Virus record (IMG/VR): IMGVR_UViG_3300046171_000225
Location: 1-64,000 of that record
Strand: one strand, 5' to 3'
Length of the DNA: 64,000 bases
Source: a virus
Part shown: in pieces, positions 16,774 through 27,125 of the stretch
How the letters are laid out: each line of letters starts with the position of its first letter
How positions within the stretch are numbered: position 1 is the first letter of the stretch
The notes under the pieces: model-generated
Seen by the model: only the letters and a program-made list of their open reading frames with translations
The model's database searches: none
What the model was told of the DNA's origin: nothing
Made by a program: the position numbers and the translations under genes

Positions 16774-17904
16774 ATGGCAACGACATTTAAAACTTTAGGT
16801 AGCAACGACGTAACAACTACTAGGACTTTGCTCCATGAATCTATCCCTGTGACAGGTTCTATCCTCTCAGGAACATACGGAGGAAACACGGTAGCTCTTG
16901 GGTCGGAACCACACATTAAGACGTACTCTCATGGCATGTTTGAAAGTGTTTTTGACTATCCTTACCTTTCTTCTTCCGCAAACCATATTTTCGACATTAC
17001 GTCAGGATATTCGTCAACTTCAACTCTTTCTGGAGCGAGCAATACACAAAACTCTAAGAAGATTAATATCTATAATCAAATGGCACAAGTTCTTATGGGG
17101 TACGATGAGACCGGTGGCGTAAGACTATTTGATGAAGATGGCGATATCATTGCTGGTGGAACAAAGATCAACGAGTGCTACTTCATTAACTTTGCAAGAA
17201 TCTTGACAAAAGATGAAATCAAAAAAGGAACTTTTGAGCTTGAACTAGTTACAAGTGACGGGTTTGCTCATGGCGCTGATTCCTCTGAAAGAATTAAGAT
17301 TACAGATGCCTCAGGATCTGATGGATATTTTGTTAACTCTCCTGCTGGGGAGTACGGTGTTCTTTTTGCCACAGGCTCTGCTGGTGCAAACGTTACTGCT
17401 GCGGATCAGTCTTATAGAGTAGGGCTTCTCTTCTATCAGGCAGGCGTCGCAGTTATCTCAGGATCTGTATTCTCAGATGCGGCAGATGGTGGCATTCTCA
17501 ATAACGCGAAAGGCACTGTTACATTTAGTCCTGCAGGCGGAGGAGTTACTGGCTTTAATACGATTACTGGTTCTACAATCGAGGTTATGGCACAAAACTT
17601 GAGAAACAGAACTTACAATATGCAGTTCAACAACACAACAGAGTTGAATTCTACAATTTACTTCTGTCGTGCCAATAATACAGAGTTTAACTACAGCGCT
17701 AACCCAACCTATCTTTCTACTTCCAACGGTCCTAGTGAGATTGTGGTTAAGGATGGAGACCCTGCGAATAGTCCTGTCTCATACGTCACAAGCGTTGGCC
17801 TGTACTCACCTGATAACGAGCTACTAGCAGTAGCCAAGGTCTCAGAGCCTTTGAAGAAAGACCCAAGTAACGAGTTGACTTTACGAGTACGCCTAGATTA
17901 CTAA
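16774..17904 (+). CDS. Putative baseplate wedge/tail-fibre attachment protein
   Basis: C-terminal YVTSVGLYSPDNELLAVAKVSEPLKK..RLDY; S/T/G-rich. Confidence 0.6.
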   Translation: MATTFKTLGSNDVTTTRTLLHESIPVTGSILSGTYGGNTVALGSEPHIKTYSHGMFESVFDYPYLSSSANHIFDITSGYSSTSTLSGASNTQNSKKINIYNQMAQVLMGYDETGGVRLFDEDGDIIAGGTKINECYFINFARILTKDEIKKGTFELELVTSDGFAHGADSSERIKITDASGSDGYFVNSPAGEYGVLFATGSAGANVTAADQSYRVGLLFYQAGVAVISGSVFSDAADGGILNNAKGTVTFSPAGGGVTGFNTITGSTIEVMAQNLRNRTYNMQFNNTTELNSTIYFCRANNTEFNYSANPTYLSTSNGPSEIVVKDGDPANSPVSYVTSVGLYSPDNELLAVAKVSEPLKKDPSNELTLRVRLDY

Positions 17905-17916
17905 GGGGGTGCTCGT

Positions 17917-19242
17917 ATGTCTTATTATAGGTTTACAAACAACGACCTATTTGTCAACCAGCTAAAAACAACACCATCCTGCAGATTTGACATTTATAAC
18001 TCTCAGATTTTTTACAATAATCAGTCTGAGCAGGCTGGTGCCTTTGTCTCTAATGTTCCGGGTGTTCCAGCAGGACATATAAGCTTATATGAATTGAATG
18101 TTGATAGAACAGAATCTGACACAGGTTTGGTATTTTCGTTCCTCCAGAGAGATAGTTCTCTAACTACATTCAAAACAATCTCAACTGAGAACTACTACTC
18201 ATTAGATTACGGCAGCCAAATTAATGCTGTTAGTGGTGCCGAGTACCCTCTCTCTGCTTCAATAACAAGAGAGTTTTTTGATAATAATCATTCGCAATCT
18301 CTAAGCGATGATAACTATGCATTTTATTACTCTTTGCGTGACCCATCACAGACTGTGAAAGAGCACATTAAATATATAAGAGACAATATCAAGGGTTCTC
18401 ACATCAATGCGTTGAAGGGTACAATAAACCATTACTCTACAATGAGTCCACACTTTAAATACTCCGCCTCTTTCAGCACTGGTTACGAAAGAGACCTAGA
18501 TGTCGTCCCAGTTAACCTAGTTAGTATCCCAAGCATATTTTACGGAAATTCCTTAGAGAAAGGCACTGTAAACTTGAAATATTTCTTAACGGGAACTCTT
18601 ATCGGAGAACTTAGGGATGTTAATAGAAACGGAGAACTTGTACAAGTAGGTCCCGAAGGGAGCACTGGGTCTGGAAGTGTTGCAGGAATGGTCCTTTATA
18701 AAGAGGGGTTTGTGATTCTGACAGGAAGCTGGGATCTGCAAACTACTGGGCCTTCTGCTGAAGCGCAACTAAATTATAAAAATACTGGTACTGCCGTGAC
18801 CTCGTCGTGGCTATTTTACGCTGCTGGTGCTAATGACGGAATCCCAAATGACGGCGAAGGCGCAGACACAAGAGCTTCAGCAAGCTACGGACTACACTTC
18901 TCCGGCTCGCATGAAGTCCCAGTGATGACGATGTTTGCTCACGCTCCGAAGGGCCAGTTGAACTTCTCTAACAACCCAACCTACTTGAGTCATAGTGCCA
19001 CAACAGGCTACTATGATGCGCTAACAAGTTCGATCTCTTACAGAGAGCCGGATCTCCCGACAGCTAATATTGTTAGTTCTTCTTTCTCAAGTCCAACAGC
19101 AAGCTTTGCAAAAGAAACTTATATCTCAAAAATTGGTATTTATGATAAAGATAAAAATTTAATTGCCGTGACAACTGTTGCAAAACCAGTTAAAAAAACA
19201 GAGGACAGAGAATTTAGTTTTAAAATGAAGTTGGATATATGA
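17917..19242 (+). CDS. Putative baseplate wedge protein, paralogue of 16774..17904
   Basis: C-terminal YISKIGIYDKDKNLIAVTTVAKPVKK..KLDI and the NFSNNPTY motif are shared with the previous gene (NYSANPTY). Confidence 0.6.
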   Translation: MSYYRFTNNDLFVNQLKTTPSCRFDIYNSQIFYNNQSEQAGAFVSNVPGVPAGHISLYELNVDRTESDTGLVFSFLQRDSSLTTFKTISTENYYSLDYGSQINAVSGAEYPLSASITREFFDNNHSQSLSDDNYAFYYSLRDPSQTVKEHIKYIRDNIKGSHINALKGTINHYSTMSPHFKYSASFSTGYERDLDVVPVNLVSIPSIFYGNSLEKGTVNLKYFLTGTLIGELRDVNRNGELVQVGPEGSTGSGSVAGMVLYKEGFVILTGSWDLQTTGPSAEAQLNYKNTGTAVTSSWLFYAAGANDGIPNDGEGADTRASASYGLHFSGSHEVPVMTMFAHAPKGQLNFSNNPTYLSHSATTGYYDALTSSISYREPDLPTANIVSSSFSSPTASFAKETYISKIGIYDKDKNLIAVTTVAKPVKKTEDREFSFKMKLDI

Positions 19243-19763
19243 TACTAGGGTTGGATGTTAGTACATCAGTAATAGGATATACTATTCTTGATGAGGAAGC
19301 AAATATAATAATCTGTGAAGCTTGGGACTTAAGAAATAAAAATAAGTTCCCTGATCTATGGACAAAAGCTAAGTTCATTAAGTTTGAGCTTGAAGCGATA
19401 AAACACAGTTATAATATAAAACATATATGTATAGAGGAAGCATTTACTTTCTTCAAATCAGGAGGCTCAACAGCTAAGACAATGGCCAAGCTTCAAGCGT
19501 TCAATGGCATCGTATCTTGGTTATGTTTAGACGTAGTGGGGGTTACTCCAGAACACATCCCGCCAGCTAGAGCAAGGAAGCTTAATGGCATAAAAGTTTC
19601 TAGAGGAGAAAAGGCAAAAGAAGTCGTTTTGAACTATTTATTGGGGAGCGAAAAGGATTTTATTATCGAATATACTTCGAGAGGAAATCCAAAGCCCACT
19701 TCTTACGATAGAGCAGACAGCTTGGTAATAGCTAGAGCTTGCTATAAATTATCCATGGAATAG
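19239..19763 (+). CDS. ruvC: RuvC-like Holliday junction resolvase
   Basis: MILGLDVSTSVIGY, ICIEE and C-terminal DRADSLVIA give the RuvC catalytic acidic residues. Confidence 0.85.
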   Translation: MILGLDVSTSVIGYTILDEEANIIICEAWDLRNKNKFPDLWTKAKFIKFELEAIKHSYNIKHICIEEAFTFFKSGGSTAKTMAKLQAFNGIVSWLCLDVVGVTPEHIPPARARKLNGIKVSRGEKAKEVVLNYLLGSEKDFIIEYTSRGNPKPTSYDRADSLVIARACYKLSME

Positions 19764-19776
19764 AGGAAACCCCAAT

Positions 19777-21021
19777 ATGAAAGCCACGGTCCTAACAGAA
19801 GCTTACATCCAACAAATCATTGAAGAAGAGACTAAAAGTATACTGTTCGAAGAACAAGTAAAGTTTTTAATGAGCGAAGGCTTCTATGAAGATGTTACTA
19901 GAGCAGCTGCTGAGGGTGGTGGTGGACTTTGTGGTGCATCTAGAGCCATAGATGCTACAATGGACTATTTCGGCACGCATGTTCGATTTGGCTACGATAT
20001 CGTGATTACTCTTTTTGGAATATTATTCCCTGGGATTGGCGATGTTGCTGACCTCATAGAGGCACTGAGATCAGGTTGCCGAGGCCAGTGTGTGGATATG
20101 TTAGTAGGATTTCTTCAGGCATTTCCTGGGTTCGGTACAGTGCCGGGAGGAGTGAAGCTAATGCTGAAATCCATAAGGAAAGGCGGCACGGACCTAGCAT
20201 CTAGAAAACTAGTTCATAAACAACTAAAGAATATTATGAATGAATTTTCTAAAGACCTTAAAGACTATAAACAATCAATAGAAATGATGAGTAAAAACTC
20301 TCGCAGCATCAGAGACAAACTTCAAGGACTAATTGATGTAGATATTGACGAATTTGAAGAGGCTCTTCAAGAATTTGGCCTACCAAAAGTTAGTAATTTT
20401 GCCCGTCAGATTTTGTATAATACTAATACAGAAGCTGGTTGGCTGATAGACACTGCGTTTAAATTACAAAATAGATTTTTTCAGTCAATGATTTCTATAC
20501 TAAATCTTTTATTCTATCTCGGACCCGCTGAATACAAAAAAAGAGGCCCTGATGGGTATATAATGTGGCTAATGGAGCAGCCGGTTGACAAAATGCTGTG
20601 TGATGCGATGGGAATGGCTCCAGAGGTTGTTATAGGCCTTACAAAAGACGCAGAGCCACTAGACTTGAAAAGCAAGAGACTCGAAAAGTTTGCAGCCCTT
20701 AAAACAGTCACAGGAGAGAAGACTCCTTTGATGGGCTTCGAGGAACTAGCCCAAAAGTGGGGGTACGGTAGCGTAGCAGAGTTGTTTCTAGGAATAAAAG
20801 ATCCGTACAAGGGCTTTCAACTCGATGCTACTAGAATTAATAAAGCTAACGTTGAACAATTTTTAGCGGACCCTGTCGGCTCTATCTTTGGGGACGAAGT
20901 AGAGCAGCTTTATAATGATTACATTTATACGTCGAAAGAAAGAGGTTTCTTTCACGCAGATAGTGATATCGTAAGAACTCCGCAGCAGGTAAAACAAATT
21001 ATAGAGAAAGCAAGACAATAA
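19777..21021 (+). CDS. Hypothetical protein with pre-toxin-TG-like segment; possible head-internal/ejected protein
   Basis: FPGIGDVADLIEAL..G..VDMLVGFLQAFPGFG; N-terminal IQQIIEEET motif. Confidence 0.5.
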   Translation: MKATVLTEAYIQQIIEEETKSILFEEQVKFLMSEGFYEDVTRAAAEGGGGLCGASRAIDATMDYFGTHVRFGYDIVITLFGILFPGIGDVADLIEALRSGCRGQCVDMLVGFLQAFPGFGTVPGGVKLMLKSIRKGGTDLASRKLVHKQLKNIMNEFSKDLKDYKQSIEMMSKNSRSIRDKLQGLIDVDIDEFEEALQEFGLPKVSNFARQILYNTNTEAGWLIDTAFKLQNRFFQSMISILNLLFYLGPAEYKKRGPDGYIMWLMEQPVDKMLCDAMGMAPEVVIGLTKDAEPLDLKSKRLEKFAALKTVTGEKTPLMGFEELAQKWGYGSVAELFLGIKDPYKGFQLDATRINKANVEQFLADPVGSIFGDEVEQLYNDYIYTSKERGFFHADSDIVRTPQQVKQIIEKARQ

Positions 21022-21041
21022 GCTACAAATGAGGGCAACTG

Positions 21042-23009
21042 ATGAAGATCAACGACAATAAACTCGAAAGTATCATACTAGAAGAAACAGTCGCAGCGAT
21101 TAATGAAATAGAAACTAAAACCTCTGGGAAACTGTTAGGTCAGTTTTTTGATTTCCTTGGCATAGGGGTAGAAAAGATTTCTTCGCTGGAGTCGTTAAAA
21201 AAGAGACTTAAAGCGGACGCTGGCCCAAGAAGTAAATTGGTGCTGAGAGCTTTGGAGGGAGACCCGGACCTTAAAGTTTTATATAATGAAGACATGTTAG
21301 AATTGTTTAAAATGCTAAGAGATAGTCCATTTGACTATCACAAACAACTCCTAGATCAGCTTAGAACTAAAAGAATGCAATTTAAACGAGGTATATTAAA
21401 AAAACTTAAACTTCAAAACCTTGTAGATCAGGAAGATGACAAAGAGATTCTTTCTATTTTCCGGCAGGTTAGGGACGCGGTCGATGAACAAGCTCTTTTA
21501 GGCGAGTTGCCAGAGTCAGCCCTAGAAGGGGTAAATGATTTTCTAGGAGCATTTGGAGAAGACTTGCGGATAGCTATGGGTAGCAGGAAAGCACTTGAGC
21601 GTAGAATCATAGATCTTAGCTTGGAAGGTGATGCCCTAGATCTTATGATGGCGGAAGCCGAGCTTTTTGAGGCGGCAGCACGAGCTACCAGCCCAGTCGT
21701 ACAAAACATATTGTATACCATGGCAGCAATGGCAGGCACAGGCGTAGCGTACAGCATGCTCTACAGACCAGGAGAAGATGGGAAAGGGTCTGTTGATATA
21801 AAATCGAAAAAAACTTTAGATTTTAAAACATCAGTAAAAGATTTGCCAACTACTAGTGGCCCAACAAAGATCCCAGTCTTTGTCAGTACGAAAGAAAAGC
21901 CTGAGGTCAAAGATAAAAAGCCGCAACCAGCCAAACCTGAGCAGCAAGCTCAACGTGTTGGCGGTATTGCACCCAAAGATGGCGAATCTAAAATCGATTT
22001 TGTGAGGAGGGCAGGCTTTACTACTGGTACTAATGAAGAAGCTATTGACGCATTTAACAAAGTTTATCCAGATTATGGCGAAGAGGACGCCGAAGCTGGC
22101 ATACCTTTGCCCCAGAGATCTTTAAGAGAGGGGTTTGATAAAGAAGATCTAGATGAGCCTCTTCTCAAAACACCAGTCACTCCTGAGATAGAAGACGACG
22201 CCCCAGAATACAAAGATCCTGTTCCTGTTGTCGGGCTTGAAGATGAAGGCTTTACTGTTGAGGTGGCTGAGGGTCCTTTCGCACCAATTTATAGAAAAAA
22301 TGGTAGAAAGGTTTCGAAAAACCTTGTAGATATTGCTTATAAAAAACTATACCTTGCCCCCCTTCCTGCTCTTGAGGACGAAGGGTATACTCGCTTAATG
22401 ATGCCTGCTGGTCAAAAAGAAAGATACTTTGACCCTGACGGACAAGAAGTGTCTGAGGAAGAGATTGCCAGACTAATAGCTACAGCAGCAGAGGATAAAG
22501 AAGCCATAAGACAGGCTACACTAAGTTCCTATGAGCGTGGGAAAAAGCAAGACCTCGAAGACAGAGAGGCGATAACACAGGCAGTATTAAGATCTTACGA
22601 GCGTGGGAAAAAGAAAGGCCTTAGGCAAGTCGCTACAACTCTAGATGATGTAGCCAAAGGTGAGGTAATGCTGCCTGGACAAATGGGCGATGGTATTAAA
22701 GCGATGCAAACAATGATCGCTGGCATTTTTGCTGATACGGGGAGAGAAGATATTCTTCCCAAGTACGGCGCAGATGGCAAGTATGGTCGTGAGACAAGAA
22801 ATGCCGTGACCGTCCTCCAGAGAGATGTTCTTGGGTTTACTGGCAAAGATATAGATGGTAAGTATGGGCCTAAGACACACAAGGCTCTTAAAGCTTATAA
22901 AGAAGCGTCAGCCAAGCTTCCTATTTCAGTGAGTCCAGAGATAGAGGGACCACCAAGCCTAGTGAACGAATCTATCCTAAACCGTTGGAAGAAAATCATT
23001 AAGGGCTAG
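21042..23009 (+). CDS. Protein with C-terminal peptidoglycan-binding (PG_binding_1-like) domain, a hydrophobic segment and internal repeats
   Basis: ADGKYGRETRNAVTVLQ..IDGKYGPKTHKAL; hydrophobic ILYTMAAMAGTGVAYSML. Confidence 0.7.
   Translation: MKINDNKLESIILEETVAAINEIETKTSGKLLGQFFDFLGIGVEKISSLESLKKRLKADAGPRSKLVLRALEGDPDLKVLYNEDMLELFKMLRDSPFDYHKQLLDQLRTKRMQFKRGILKKLKLQNLVDQEDDKEILSIFRQVRDAVDEQALLGELPESALEGVNDFLGAFGEDLRIAMGSRKALERRIIDLSLEGDALDLMMAEAELFEAAARATSPVVQNILYTMAAMAGTGVAYSMLYRPGEDGKGSVDIKSKKTLDFKTSVKDLPTTSGPTKIPVFVSTKEKPEVKDKKPQPAKPEQQAQRVGGIAPKDGESKIDFVRRAGFTTGTNEEAIDAFNKVYPDYGEEDAEAGIPLPQRSLREGFDKEDLDEPLLKTPVTPEIEDDAPEYKDPVPVVGLEDEGFTVEVAEGPFAPIYRKNGRKVSKNLVDIAYKKLYLAPLPALEDEGYTRLMMPAGQKERYFDPDGQEVSEEEIARLIATAAEDKEAIRQATLSSYERGKKQDLEDREAITQAVLRSYERGKKKGLRQVATTLDDVAKGEVMLPGQMGDGIKAMQTMIAGIFADTGREDILPKYGADGKYGRETRNAVTVLQRDVLGFTGKDIDGKYGPKTHKALKAYKEASAKLPISVSPEIEGPPSLVNESILNRWKKIIKG
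22491..22622 (+). repeat. Imperfect 66-nt (22-aa) tandem repeat inside the PG-binding protein
   Basis: EDKEAIRQATLSSYERGKKQDL / EDREAITQAVLRSYERGKKKGL. Confidence 0.85.
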
Positions 23010-23048: not shown

Positions 23049-23981
23049 ATGCCTGAAAAACTAAACATTCTCAAAGGTATTCTTGGTCGCTACCGTTCTT
23101 CGGGCCAGGAGTACCTTTTTACTTGTCCTTACTGTGGGCACCACAAGCTCAAGTTCTCAGTGAATATTGAGAAGAATATGTATAAGTGCTGGGTTTGTGA
23201 CCAGCGCGGCAAGGACATATATAAAGTCATTAAGCGTTATGGAACTTTCCGCGACATTCAAGAGTGGAGAGTCCTTACAAACATGGTTGAACTTTCTGAG
23301 TTCGACGGAATGTTCGACGGACCAGAAGAAGAAAAAGAAGAGATCTTAGATCTTCCGCCTGAGTTCCGGTCCCTTGCGAACACGAACACAATCGCAGCTC
23401 AGAACGCTCTGAATTACCTTAGGGGTAGAGGGGTGACAGATAAAGATATTCTTCGATGGAAGATCGGCTTTTGTGATGACGGAGAATATAAAAACAGAAT
23501 TATTGTTCCCTCTTTCGGAATGACCGGCAAAGCAAACTTTTTTGTTGCCCGTTCTTACTCAGGCGATTGGATGAGATACAAGAATCCAAAGGTCAACAGA
23601 AATATAATATTCAATGAACTATATATGGATTGGGGTAGAGATGTTGTCTTAGTGGAGGGCATCTTCGATGCGATCAGAGCCCACAATATTGGGTCTCCGA
23701 TTCCACTTTTGGGTTCGACTCTTAGGGTAGAGTCAAAACTATTCCAAAACATAGTCAGGAATGATTCAAGAGTTTTCCTGGCTCTCGATGACGATGCCAA
23801 AAAGAAAGCAATGAAAGTTGCTTCAAGTCTTAATAAGTACGGCATTGAAGTCTACGATATCGACACCTCGGGATACGAAGATGTGGCAGAAATGCCGCAC
23901 GATATCTTGCAAGAAAGAAAAGAAACAGCTAAGATAATAAATCCCAATAATCGCTTGTACGAACTTATAAGGAACATCTAA
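23049..23981 (+). CDS. DNA primase (zinc finger + TOPRIM)
   Basis: CPYCGH..KCWVC zinc finger, YLRGRG, LVEGIFDAI, LDDDA. Confidence 0.9.
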   Translation: MPEKLNILKGILGRYRSSGQEYLFTCPYCGHHKLKFSVNIEKNMYKCWVCDQRGKDIYKVIKRYGTFRDIQEWRVLTNMVELSEFDGMFDGPEEEKEEILDLPPEFRSLANTNTIAAQNALNYLRGRGVTDKDILRWKIGFCDDGEYKNRIIVPSFGMTGKANFFVARSYSGDWMRYKNPKVNRNIIFNELYMDWGRDVVLVEGIFDAIRAHNIGSPIPLLGSTLRVESKLFQNIVRNDSRVFLALDDDAKKKAMKVASSLNKYGIEVYDIDTSGYEDVAEMPHDILQERKETAKIINPNNRLYELIRNI

Positions 23982-26900
23982 ATGCGTTTTGCCCATATTG
24001 CTGACACTCACATCCGGAATCTAAAGTACCACAAAGAGTACAAAGAAGTGTTCAGGCAGTTATATGAATCTATTCGGCAAGAGAATGTCGATTACATTAT
24101 TCATTGTGGAGACATCGCTCACACTAAGACACAGATCTCTCCAGAGTTCGTGGATATGTGCTCAGATTTTCTAAGCAATCTAGCAGATATTGCTCCCACG
24201 TATGTGATTCTGGGCAACCACGATGGTAACCTCAAGAACACAGGCCGTCTCGACGCCTTAACGCCTATTGTAGAGGCCCTTGAGCATCCGGACCTACATT
24301 TGCTCAAGAACGCTCAAGAAGTCTACCTAAGGGACGGTTTTGCGCTTAATGTGCTGTCTGTGTTCGATGAAAGCAACTGGGATGATCCATCTAACTACGA
24401 CAACGTTAATATTGCTCTGTACCATGGCTCCATCTCTAACTGTCAGACAGATAGTGGCTGGGTCATGGAAAAGGGCGAGCATGACATAAGTATTTTTGAA
24501 GAGTTCGACTACGCTTTCCTGGGCGATATCCACAAACCACAAGCAATGGATAAAGCTGGTAGAATCCGATACGCTGGGTCCACGGTACAGCAAGGGTTTG
24601 GAGAGTCAGAAGACAAGGGTATTCTTGTTTGGGATATTCAAGATCGTGATAACTTTGAAGTCAAAAGGGTGACTTTCCAAAATCCCAAGCCATTCGTAAC
24701 GGTCGAGCTTATAGATGGCAAACTACCAAGCGTAGAACTAGAGAAGGGTGCTCGTGTTCGTTTGCTTTCTAATGAGAGTATCACATTAGAGAACATGAAG
24801 AAAGCAGTGGACGTAGCTCAGCATCGGTTCAAGCCAGAGAGCATTACCTTCTTGAATAGAAATATCAGCCAGAACAGCCTAAACGCTAACACGGCAGACC
24901 ATATTAGACACGATGACCTGCGCGATATTGTTGTCCAGAGGAGATTGATCAAGGAGTTTCTTTCGGATTACCAACTCAGCGCTGCCGTTATGGATAAGAT
25001 CTTAGAGCTAAATGACAAGTACAATCTCATGGCTGAGGAGAGTGAAGAAGTTCTTCGTAATGTTAACTGGAAGATTCGTAAGCTTAAGTTTGATAACTTG
25101 TTTAACTACGGAGAGGATAATGAGATTAACTTTGCGGCTCTCAACGGAATTATTGGAATCTTTGGAAAGAACTACTCTGGCAAATCAAGCGTAATCGACA
25201 GCTTGCTTTTCACCCTGTTCAATACAACTTCCAAGAACGAGAGGAAAAATCTAAATGTGATCAACTTCGATAAGGAGTATGCCTCTGGGCACCTTGAGTT
25301 GATGACCGAAGACGGAACTGTTTGGAACATCAATAGGCAAACAGACAAGTACACAAAGAAGTCTAGAGGCAAATTGGTCACCGAAGCAAAGACCGATCTA
25401 AATTTTACCTCTACTCTTATTGACGGTACGACTGAAGAGAGAAATGGTCTGACAAGGAATGATACTGACAAAGAGATTAGAAAGGTTTTTGGAACTGTAG
25501 ATGACTTCTTGCTAACCTCGATGTCGTCACAGCTAGACTCATTGTCGTTCATTCGCGAAGGGTCTACCAAGCGTAAAGAAATCTTTGCTAAGTTCTTGGA
25601 CCTTGAACTTTTCGATAAAAAGTACAAGCTTGCTAAAGTCGAGGCTTCTGATTTACGTGGTGCTCTCAAGCGCCTAGAGGGTAAAAACTATGCTTCCGAC
25701 ATAGATGAGGCCCTATATGAGCTAGAGCAGTGTGTGCTAGATAGCGAAGAAGCTCAGAAAGAAATAAAAGAAAACGGCACACTTATTGACTCTAGCCAAA
25801 AGAGTTTGACTGACCTTGAGGTAAAGATCAAAGCTACGCCCACTGAGTTGATTGACATAGTAGCTTTGCGAAGAGAACTAAAAGATAAAAAGAACCAACT
25901 GGTATCTGTGAATTCCAACACAGGAGAGCTCGAAGATAAGTCAGTTAGATACGAAGAGATTCGTCAGACTCTTGTGGGGTATATAGAAGAGTTTGATGGC
26001 ACACCTTATGAGTATAGGATTGATACATGCTCGAAGATCGATGGCTTGTTGGCAGAGATCAAGACTAAAGTAAATGAGCGCACGCGTTCCAAGAGGGAGA
26101 ATGAGAGGCAAGCTAAGATTTTGGACGACATCCCTTGCGGCACCTCTTACCCAACTTGTAAGTTTATTAAAGATGCTTACGTGGCAAAAGCGAATATTCC
26201 CCAAGACCAGAAGGAATTGGATAAGTATAATAGTGATTCTGCGATTCTAGAAGAGAAGAAAGAAGCACTCGCACCAGGAGAAGCCCAAGAACAGCTCGAC
26301 AAGCACCAAGCTTTGGTTGACAAGCACAGGGAATATGTGACGTCTCTTGATAAAATCAAGTTGACGCTTGAAAAAAACAAAGCGATTGCCGTAACTTTGG
26401 TATCTGAGATCTCCTCTCTGGAAGAAAGAGAGAAGCAGTACACGGTGAACAAAGAGGCTATCGATAATTTAAACACTCTTCTGTCTGACAAAGCTAAGCT
26501 TGCGAAGACGTTAAGGGATTTTGAAGCAGAAAAGAGAAACCTAGACAGCCGCTCTAAGATTGTCAATAGAAAGATAGGCTCGCTGGAGCAGAAGATTGAA
26601 AACCTCCGCGAGCAACAGACAGAACTAACAAGACTGCAAGAAGAATATTCTGCATACGACCTTTACTCGAAGTGCATGCACAGTAACGGAATTGCATACG
26701 ACATTATCAAGAGTAAGCTTCCGGCTATCAACGAAGAGATCACTAAGTTCCTTATGAATATTGTAGAGTTTGATGTCTACTTCGAAGACGAAGGTAAAAA
26801 GCTGAACATCTATATCCAGCATCCAGAACAAGATCCAAGGCCTCTTGAGATGGGCTCCGGAGCAGAAAAGACGATTGCTGCTATGGCTATCAGATTGGCA

Positions 26901-27125
26901 CTTCTATCTGTTTCTAATTTGCCCAAAGGGGATATTTTTATATTAGACGAACCAGGGACTGCCCTTGACGAGGAAAATATGGAAGGCTTTACTCGGATGC
27001 TTGAAATGATTAAGAGCCATTTTAAGACCGTATTACTTATCTCTCATCTTGAGGCTCTAAAAGATTGCGTAGACAAGCAGATAAGTATAGAACAGAAGGA
27101 CGGGTATGCTTTTGTTAACTGTTAG
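23982..27125 (+). CDS. Fused Mre11/SbcD nuclease and Rad50/SbcC ATPase (gp47-gp46 fusion)
   Basis: N-terminal HIADTH, GDIAH, GNHD and GDIH phosphoesterase motifs. Then Walker A GKNYSGKSS, coiled coil, signature GSGAEK, Walker B ILDEPG and ISH. Confidence 0.92.
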   Translation: MRFAHIADTHIRNLKYHKEYKEVFRQLYESIRQENVDYIIHCGDIAHTKTQISPEFVDMCSDFLSNLADIAPTYVILGNHDGNLKNTGRLDALTPIVEALEHPDLHLLKNAQEVYLRDGFALNVLSVFDESNWDDPSNYDNVNIALYHGSISNCQTDSGWVMEKGEHDISIFEEFDYAFLGDIHKPQAMDKAGRIRYAGSTVQQGFGESEDKGILVWDIQDRDNFEVKRVTFQNPKPFVTVELIDGKLPSVELEKGARVRLLSNESITLENMKKAVDVAQHRFKPESITFLNRNISQNSLNANTADHIRHDDLRDIVVQRRLIKEFLSDYQLSAAVMDKILELNDKYNLMAEESEEVLRNVNWKIRKLKFDNLFNYGEDNEINFAALNGIIGIFGKNYSGKSSVIDSLLFTLFNTTSKNERKNLNVINFDKEYASGHLELMTEDGTVWNINRQTDKYTKKSRGKLVTEAKTDLNFTSTLIDGTTEERNGLTRNDTDKEIRKVFGTVDDFLLTSMSSQLDSLSFIREGSTKRKEIFAKFLDLELFDKKYKLAKVEASDLRGALKRLEGKNYASDIDEALYELEQCVLDSEEAQKEIKENGTLIDSSQKSLTDLEVKIKATPTELIDIVALRRELKDKKNQLVSVNSNTGELEDKSVRYEEIRQTLVGYIEEFDGTPYEYRIDTCSKIDGLLAEIKTKVNERTRSKRENERQAKILDDIPCGTSYPTCKFIKDAYVAKANIPQDQKELDKYNSDSAILEEKKEALAPGEAQEQLDKHQALVDKHREYVTSLDKIKLTLEKNKAIAVTLVSEISSLEEREKQYTVNKEAIDNLNTLLSDKAKLAKTLRDFEAEKRNLDSRSKIVNRKIGSLEQKIENLREQQTELTRLQEEYSAYDLYSKCMHSNGIAYDIIKSKLPAINEEITKFLMNIVEFDVYFEDEGKKLNIYIQHPEQDPRPLEMGSGAEKTIAAMAIRLALLSVSNLPKGDIFILDEPGTALDEENMEGFTRMLEMIKSHFKTVLLISHLEALKDCVDKQISIEQKDGYAFVNC

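Follow-up and report, generated by a model that had tools for sequence, protein, structure and literature searches.

The junction between a RuvC-like resolvase gene and a DnaG-type primase gene in the virus record IMGVR_UViG_3300046171_000225 is a hypervariable insertion hotspot, at which one clade of related phages swaps whole alleles at the boundary of a short leader-coding stretch. The DNA analysed, hereafter the window, comprises the first 64 kb (64,000 nucleotides) of this single 163,026-bp record, while genome-wide searches covered the full 163 kb. The phage is an uncultured marine T4-like myovirus of the lytic type, with nearly all genes encoded on the + strand and with a T4-type head module that includes a large terminase, a portal protein (phrog_213), a gp21-type maturation protease (match to phrog_207 with an expectation value, E, of 4e-52) and a gp23-type capsid protein (phrog_138). 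As a first-pass annotation of the window had noted, two accessory genes, here called P1 and P2, lie between the resolvase and the primase; both are real genes and are on the + strand. Our preferred reading, put forward tentatively and with somewhat less than even confidence, is that their products are head-loaded, ejected and envelope-acting cargo encoded by a late-expressed hypervariable cassette. The genes of the junction are arranged as follows:

19239-19763, RuvC-like resolvase gene, directly upstream of P1
19777-21021, + strand, P1, an open reading frame (ORF) of 414 amino acids with a leader, a helical hairpin module and a variable helical body
21042-23009, + strand, P2, an ORF of 655 amino acids between P1 and the primase gene
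23049-23981, DnaG-type primase gene, downstream of P2

The variability of this junction was assessed in 80 related IMG/VR loci, retrieved with RuvC as query. In about 55 of the 80 there is no space between RuvC and primase, whose genes abut or overlap (gap -18 to -57 nucleotides); this is the ancestral arrangement. An insert that opens with the leader is found at the junction only in the window, in the metagenome contig L001 and in the closest clade, L036-L042 (RuvC 73-77% identical). The inserts of this clade span 2.2-3.6 kb and every one opens with the leader M..LTEF[DE][IL]NQIIIEE[TA]K, while the proteins that follow it vary, from 473 amino acids plus a second gene of 392 amino acids in L036 to single products of 737 (L037), 898 (L038-L040) and 1202 amino acids (L042); the window's own insert encodes 414 and 655. 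Contig L001 matches the window with 92.7% DNA identity over 5153 nucleotides (BLASTN), and its RuvC differs from that of the window at one of 174 residues. The match ends within P1:

19856, break in identity to L001, at codon 27 of P1, where windowed identity falls from about 99% to below 50%

L001 keeps the flank and the first 26 codons of P1, and past the break its allele encodes a protein (P0002) that is about 36% identical to P1 (BLASTP). A constant leader-coding stretch with divergent sequence behind it implies that whole bodies have been exchanged, and the combination of 93%-identical DNA, an allele of about 36% identity and a break at codon 27 bears the signature of an arms race. Word-based protein searches returned just two close homologues of P1 (among 5.8 billion proteins), no full-length homologue of P2 and no further carriers of the first 40 residues of P1. 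Among 50,697 phage records there were zero matches to the region (BLASTN, TBLASTN) or to P1, and P2 matched only in its peptidoglycan-binding part (TBLASTN, to phage endolysins); scans of IMG/VR with P1, P0009 and the exact leader gave no matches. Outside the leader, P1 and P2 show no homology to one another.

Cell-wall functions recur at the junction, as PG_binding_1 is present in P2, L037 and L038. The long single ORFs at L037:10531-12744, L038:2404-5100 and L042:10531-14139 contain internal leader-like copies (at residues 469-493 in L037, 500-524 in L038, and 410-431 and near 1010 in L042), each placed after a basic stretch and with the Met kept in the usual leader register. Such ORFs could be fused cassettes, could carry internal starts or could be polyproteins cut by the head protease. 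The second insert gene of L036 (11989-13167) has a zinc-peptidase-like motif (SWHMHGLAAD ... HIHV), a weak match to Peptidase_M15_3 (E 0.068) and a leader-like sequence at its C-terminus; a sequence search of the Protein Data Bank with this gene product came back empty. In other lineages (L086-L097, L114) the junction holds different inserts, which, read from their N-termini alone, look like an FKBP-type isomerase and a UvdE-like endonuclease flanked by two small ORFs. The junction insert of L087, likewise judged by its N-terminus, is a protein that begins with the W-leader described below.

The element common to the two genes is their leader:

19777-19851, + strand, P1 leader, residues 1-25, ending in LFE, an [LI]-x-E site
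21042-21113, + strand, P2 leader, residues 1-24, with INE and IE sites

The first-pass annotation had pointed to an N-terminal helix shared by the two proteins and carrying L/I-x-E sites, and this is borne out. Both N-termini contain II-x-EET, followed 9-11 residues on by [LI]-x-E, a pattern found only in P1 and P2 among the ORFs of the 163-kb genome, and residues 8-33 of P1 are modelled by AlphaFold2 as a single helix with a predicted local distance difference test (pLDDT) score of up to 91. P0001, P0002 and P0003 agree in all of their first 19 residues and are 24-41% identical over the remainder, and more distant members of the P1 family retain L.E.D..QII.EET.S.L.E. In the 80 related loci a leader-profile search identified 114 distinct and unrelated ORFs headed by a leader with the consensus MKITKSQLKQIIKEEL..VL.E, here called the K-leader. 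These ORFs are mostly small (median 122 amino acids) and located in arrays 1-10 kb downstream of primase (L043-L115). The L at -3, II at 0/+1 and EE at +3/+4 are conserved in 96-100% of the 114, with all synonymous codons in use; the E at +4, for instance, is encoded 62 times by GAA and 52 times by GAG. As synonymous variation is free while the residues are conserved, selection on the K-leader acts at the level of the peptide rather than of RNA or DNA. A [LIVMF]-x-E site follows 7-13 residues past II in 77 of the 114 ORFs, its modal register being that of P1 (LFE) and P2 (INE), and P2 is in register with the K-leader consensus at eight key positions (M, L, II, EE and [LI]-x-E). No occurrence of the string KQIIKEE was found in the literature.

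The K-leader is a second portable leader in marine T4-like phages and is distinct from the W-leader (MKKLFESWR.YL.E), which has a different sequence and heads about nine ORFs of the same genome outside the window, at 71.9 kb and 114.1-127.6 kb. Among the W-leader genes lies an ORF of 198 amino acids (L198, genome 125408-126004) that begins MILTEEKLKSIILDELRKTVFKE; it is K-leader-like at a level that is not significant (E 0.22-2.3) and has no Pfam family.

The connection between the K-leader and the phage head emerges from a second survey, of 80 further loci retrieved with the prohead protease as query. Within the conserved head block of 25 of the 80 there are ORFs whose N-terminus is the leader or resembles it. 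In about 14 of these 25, variable leader ORFs are found just upstream and downstream of the gp21-type protease gene (L148 at 3452, 4609 and 4965; L161 at 3450, 4610, 4964 and 6075), and the variable head-block leader ORFs precede the bS21 gene and a homologue of window gene 36463. In the remaining loci of the 25 the match is the homologue of window protein 35018, starting MKKSELKNIIKECVREVIFE (E ~0.007). The likeness to head protein 35018 that had been read from the window alone is thereby recovered in these homologues, although for the window copy itself it is not significant. Upstream of P1 the same annotation had marked a late motif:

19633-19640, + strand, ACTATTTA late-promoter-like motif, 144 nucleotides upstream of the P1 start and inside the 3' end of RuvC

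This motif belongs to an enriched class, since ACTATTTA occurs 12 times in the window compared to 3.5 expected (about 3.5-fold), a number reached by 0 of 100 shuffles. The ten + strand copies (15823, 15840, 16626, 19633, 34160, 36432, 37228, 40453, 44299 and 48920) are mostly located just upstream of head and tail genes (15868, 16774, 34387, 36463, 40516, 44342 and 48949). ACTATTTA is likely a late-promoter core that differs from the TATAAATA of T4, which is not enriched in the window (four copies, all on the - strand, compared to 2.7 expected). Scans of sigma-70 promoters and terminators remained at or below shuffle level. Given leader ORFs in the head module and a ACTATTTA copy before P1, late expression and association with the head core would be the most economical reading of the P1/P2 cassette.

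The leader may of course serve another partner, as a peptide recognised by a chaperone or by a modifying enzyme, or have a translation-related role, with functions of P1 and P2 that are unrelated to the capsid. This appears distinctly unlikely, as the conservation acts on the peptide under free synonymous variation, which argues against an RNA or DNA element, and as the leader terminates in the consensus site of the protease and is carried by ORFs on either side of the protease gene. Nor was a conserved partner enzyme seen beside the leader arrays, though no systematic search for one was made.

Behind its leader, P1 consists of a hairpin module and a variable body:

19975-20178, + strand, whole hairpin module, P1 residues ~67-134
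20029-20136, + strand, hairpin motif PG-x-G-D-x-x-D ... P-x-x-G, P1 residues 85-120, 36 residues in length
20212-21018, + strand, variable C-terminal body of P1, residues 146-414, helical

An exhaustive search with a profile of the three close homologues returned 58 matches, of which the weak ones (E 5e-9 to 1e-3) nearly all align to P1 residues 70-200. More than 45 matches carry PG-x-G-[DE]-x-x-D ... [IL]-P-x-x-G at the 36-residue span seen in P1, and P85, G88, D92, P117 and G120 vary little or not at all across 55 sequences, with basic residues after the motif. A profile made from 48 bacterial segments, originally gathered with a profile that included P1, has P1 as its sole match among 1637 six-frame ORFs (E 3.4e-11; next 0.085), and detects all 11 phage-type members (E 1e-11 to 1e-27). 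The carriers include DUF4280/PAAR-like (five), Rhs-associated core (six), RHS core (two) and PT-HINT (two) proteins, as well as eCIS_core, LHH nuclease, toxin deaminase, Ntox46 and GIY-YIG proteins, and in bacterial Rhs, PAAR-like and eCIS proteins the hairpin separates the delivery part from the toxin, with DUF4280 or eCIS_core on its N-terminal side and Ntox46 or PT-HINT on its C-terminal side. When modelled with 55 sequences (AlphaFold2), it forms helices at 87-101 and 105-115 with a P-G-x-G turn before each, flanked by helices at 67-83 and 123-134 (pLDDT about 70-82).

The FPGIGD...FPGFG segment that constitutes this motif had been likened to the pre-toxin TG motif of polymorphic toxins. 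The likeness stands in so far as the motif is far beyond chance in P1 and forms a hairpin of the toxin type, but the Pfam label PT-TG (PF14449) does not apply. P1 has no match to this profile at E up to 1 (gathering score 23.5 bits), a six-frame search of the 163-kb genome, taken to E 10, was empty although the Bacillus subtilis control genome scored above the cut-off, and 0 of 55 hairpin carriers match at E 0.001. Membership of P1 in the Pfam family is therefore rejected. P1 and genuine PT-TG share an opening P-x-x-G-x-x-x-D-x-x-x-A, a hydrophobic stretch, a closing P-x-x-G and basic residues, and P-x-x-G-x-x-x-D-L-x-E-A is common to P1 and PT-TG examples fetched from other genomes. However, the genuine examples have a TG...TGE.LS..ER loop that P1 lacks, P1 having RS where they have TG, and hhalign aligns the two profiles co-linearly, though weakly (E 0.012, probability 3.6%). 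In polymorphic toxins PT-TG lies between the delivery and payload domains (PMC13483458). The hairpin thus looks like a separate family, not modelled by Pfam, that occupies the same place in toxins as PT-TG.

All 11 phage-type members retain the order leader, hairpin, body. Their bodies (99-332 amino acids) are unrelated by BLASTP save for the pairs P0001/P0002 and L064/L089, so that a conserved N-terminus with variable C-termini, the check proposed along with the first-pass annotation, is indeed what these proteins display. Among the 11 members the body of P1 has homology to that of P0002 alone, and it has no Pfam or PHROG family. It had been described as an unassigned helical domain, and the models agree with this description: AlphaFold2 yields an all-helical protein, Foldseek against viral models gave no match to P1 at E 0.001 or better, and the best Z of a wide Protein Data Bank fold search (5.9) is within the noise for long helices.

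The architecture of tag, hairpin and variable C-terminal body is also that of a true polymorphic toxin, in which a delivery tag and a pre-toxin domain would precede a C-terminal toxin directed against the infected cell or a competitor, in the manner of MuF proteins. The hairpin is common to proteins with LHH, deaminase, Ntox46 and GIY-YIG domains, the allele is hypervariable and a protein language-model search placed a PT-TG cluster at rank 17 (score 0.85), a lead only. A toxin in this strict sense is nevertheless improbable: toxin domains were found neither in P1 nor in the eight phage-type members scanned, the MuF domain is absent from P1 and P2 (Pfam scan), PF14449 is not matched, and the gene after P1 is not a small immunity-like gene but the 655-amino-acid P2. 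An effector reading is plausible; a toxin reading is unsupported.

The second protein, P2, is composed of the leader, a charged helical region, an Ala/Gly/Met-rich segment, a Lys/Pro/Glu-rich acidic/basic linker, a tandem repeat, a PG_binding_1 domain and a conserved tail:

21696-21764, + strand, Ala/Gly/Met-rich, weakly hydrophobic segment, P2 residues 219-241, Kyte-Doolittle peak 1.17
22500-22622, + strand, tandem repeat of ~20 residues, EAI-x-QA-x-L-x-SYERGKK, 14/19 identical, pairwise E 5e-9
22674-22907, + strand, PG_binding_1 domain, P2 residues ~545-622, PF01471 E 2.5e-5, 24.8 bits compared to a cut-off of 23
22962-23006, + strand, conserved C-terminal tail of P2 (ESILNRWKKIIKG)

Of the features first ascribed to P2, the repeats are confirmed as a 19-residue tandem repeat and peptidoglycan binding as one PG_binding_1 domain rather than several, while the segment described as transmembrane-like is only weakly hydrophobic. 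The alleles L037, L038 and L042 have similar segments rich in Gly and Ala. The leader proteins of L037 (737 amino acids) and L038 (898 amino acids) end in a P2-type tail (53-67% identity over 15-17 residues; consensus of the three ES.[YL][NS]RW[QK]K[IL]IKG), and are single ORFs that combine an N-terminal leader, a mid PG_binding_1, an internal leader-like copy and this tail. A sequence search of the Protein Data Bank with P2 was empty.

The composition of P2 invites the alternative that the pair is not part of the virion and that it acts late on the envelope of the producing cell, for instance as an accessory holin- or endolysin-like function, in the timing of lysis or in superinfection exclusion, with the leader as an oligomerisation or partner-binding helix. 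Hydrophobic segments together with a PG-binding domain are typical of such proteins, every PHROG match of P2 is to an endolysin family, a gene for an Rz-like spanin is found 4 kb downstream, the weak Peptidase_M15_3 match is present in the second L036 insert gene, and lysis cassettes are frequently mosaic. Yet the endolysin families hit P2 only in the cell-wall-binding region (E 7.7e-9), and a catalytic murein hydrolase domain was found in P2 neither with Pfam and PHROG nor by TBLASTN, so that P2 as an endolysin is rejected. The genome contains elsewhere a stand-alone Amidase_3 (E 1e-23), a candidate endolysin, and a W-leader-tagged Hydrolase_2 cell-wall hydrolase (genome 126273-126848), and P2 is therefore not needed in this capacity. 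P1 and P2 also have neither a signal peptide nor a convincing transmembrane helix, and a role in lysis or exclusion leaves unexplained why the leader is carried by more than 110 unrelated small ORFs and by ORFs of the head module. On balance we consider such a role unlikely. With P2 devoid of a signal peptide, its PG-binding domain would most simply reach the murein from outside, by ejection.

A leader found beside the head protease in relatives and a toxin-type hairpin together suggest that P1 and P2 may be loaded into the head, injected and active on the host envelope. In the mechanism that we infer, which leads through packaging, cleavage and ejection to action on membrane and cell wall, the leader, as an amphipathic helix, would dock the proteins onto the prohead core, and the gp21-type protease would cut them behind [LI]-x-E (P1 at about E25, P2 at E22 or E24). 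Once matured, the two proteins would be packaged together with the DNA and ejected into the next host, where the hairpin of P1 may engage the membrane, with the variable body as payload, and P2 may bind murein via its C-terminal PG_binding_1. The variable parts of the pair would, under this mechanism, track host variation.

Several observations weigh against head-loaded cargo. With a canonical-leader profile from which the P1 clade was left out, P1 reaches E 0.13 and P2 only E 3.2, and the assignment of both to the K-leader hence draws on intermediates and residue register. A profile of the P1 clade only does retrieve canonical leaders outside the clade (54 matches overall at E up to 1, its own clade included, the best canonical one at 6e-5), and P1 may accordingly be a distant and weak member, while P2 would be a member by residue register alone, a weak case that is helped by its adjacency to P1 and by the fusion ORFs L037 and L038, with their N-terminal leader and P2-like tail. 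The canonical leader was found in no cultured phage and gave one marginal match (E 0.6), in an unannotated uncultured-phage record. The window's own 35018 protein, further diverged than its homologues, is not detected by the leader profile. The W-leader is more abundant in the same phage, so that two different tags would serve one destination. The hydrophobic peak of P1 (1.83) is broken by Pro, Gly and Asp and that of P2 is weak, which keeps membrane insertion hypothetical. Finally, the AlphaFold2 models are low to middling (pLDDT 49 and 62), the first run for P1 giving 49 and the run with 55 sequences being better only at residues 1-125, and the fold searches were uninformative.

Among known systems, the T7 proteins gp14, gp15 and gp16 are head-internal, are ejected ahead of the DNA and act on murein and membranes, gp16 having a cell-wall-degrading domain. 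The PG-binding and hydrophobic helical parts of P1 and P2 are reminiscent of these core proteins, but a sequence or fold relationship is lacking (T7 entries at Z ~5, noise), a catalytic domain is absent from P2, and T7 is a podophage whereas the phage described here is a myovirus. A closer parallel is found in T4, the diverse internal proteins of which have only a capsid targeting sequence (CTS) in common (PMC3012670). Like the K-leader, the CTS of IPI, IPII, IPIII and Alt, which is removed by the gp21 prohead protease, is a short N-terminal amphipathic leader that is carried by otherwise unrelated, fast-evolving accessory proteins in hyperplastic loci (PMC3012670), and in both phages it ends in [LI]-x-E and a gp21-type protease is encoded. 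Unlike the CTS, the K-leader has about 22 residues of another sequence, is also present on ORFs within the head module, heads proteins of 414-1202 amino acids with membrane-type and PG-binding parts, which are predicted cargo only, and has internal copies in some alleles. The MuF polymorphic toxins of temperate phages, in which a head-associated N-terminal part is fused to variable C-terminal domains (PMC5576092), resemble P1 as an idea. However, P1 has no MuF domain, recognised toxin or immunity gene, its address is a short leader and not a structural domain, and the phage is lytic-type and T4-like. The first-pass proposal of an injected effector analogous to MuF toxins is accordingly supported in part, by the leader, which is also present in the head module of relatives, by the hypervariability of the insert and by the hairpin, but not by any MuF domain, recognisable toxin domain or immunity gene. 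The P1/P2 pair is a variant of the T4 capsid-targeting theme, and the less expected feature is the hairpin shared with bacterial contractile-injection and Rhs toxins.

A broader and more doubtful proposition, to which we give a rather low probability, is that marine T4-like phages own a polymorphic effector system of address, hairpin and exchangeable payload, in which a prohead-core leader replaces the PAAR, Rhs or eCIS trafficking domain. If so, the phage head and tail would be the delivery device, phage internal proteins and bacterial polymorphic toxins would be linked by descent, and the hairpin would be a general module for crossing or engaging a target membrane. Should the leader be a true head address, these phages would inject a large and fast-changing set of proteins, and the K-leader would provide a handle for cargo in ocean viromes. 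The hairpin module is widespread and unmodelled by Pfam, and in phages it is placed directly behind a head-type leader; with two delivery systems that contain it, its role, be it membrane engagement, processing or loading, would become accessible to experiment. The RuvC-primase junction, in turn, represents a clear example of a hotspot at which one clade exchanges whole alleles at the leader-coding boundary.

The genes that surround the cassette include some minor features. An ORF of 1047 amino acids (window 23982-27125) unites a phosphoesterase of the SbcD type (Metallophos, residues 1-185) and an ATPase of the SbcC/Rad50 type (SMC_N, residues 365-1038), and the T4 counterpart of this fusion is two separate proteins, gp47 and gp46. 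The adjacent genes at window 16774-17904 and 17917-19242 have alike C-terminal ends (...LRVRLDY and ...FKMKLDI), are kept in related loci with about two matching ORFs per locus, and probably encode paralogous structural proteins.

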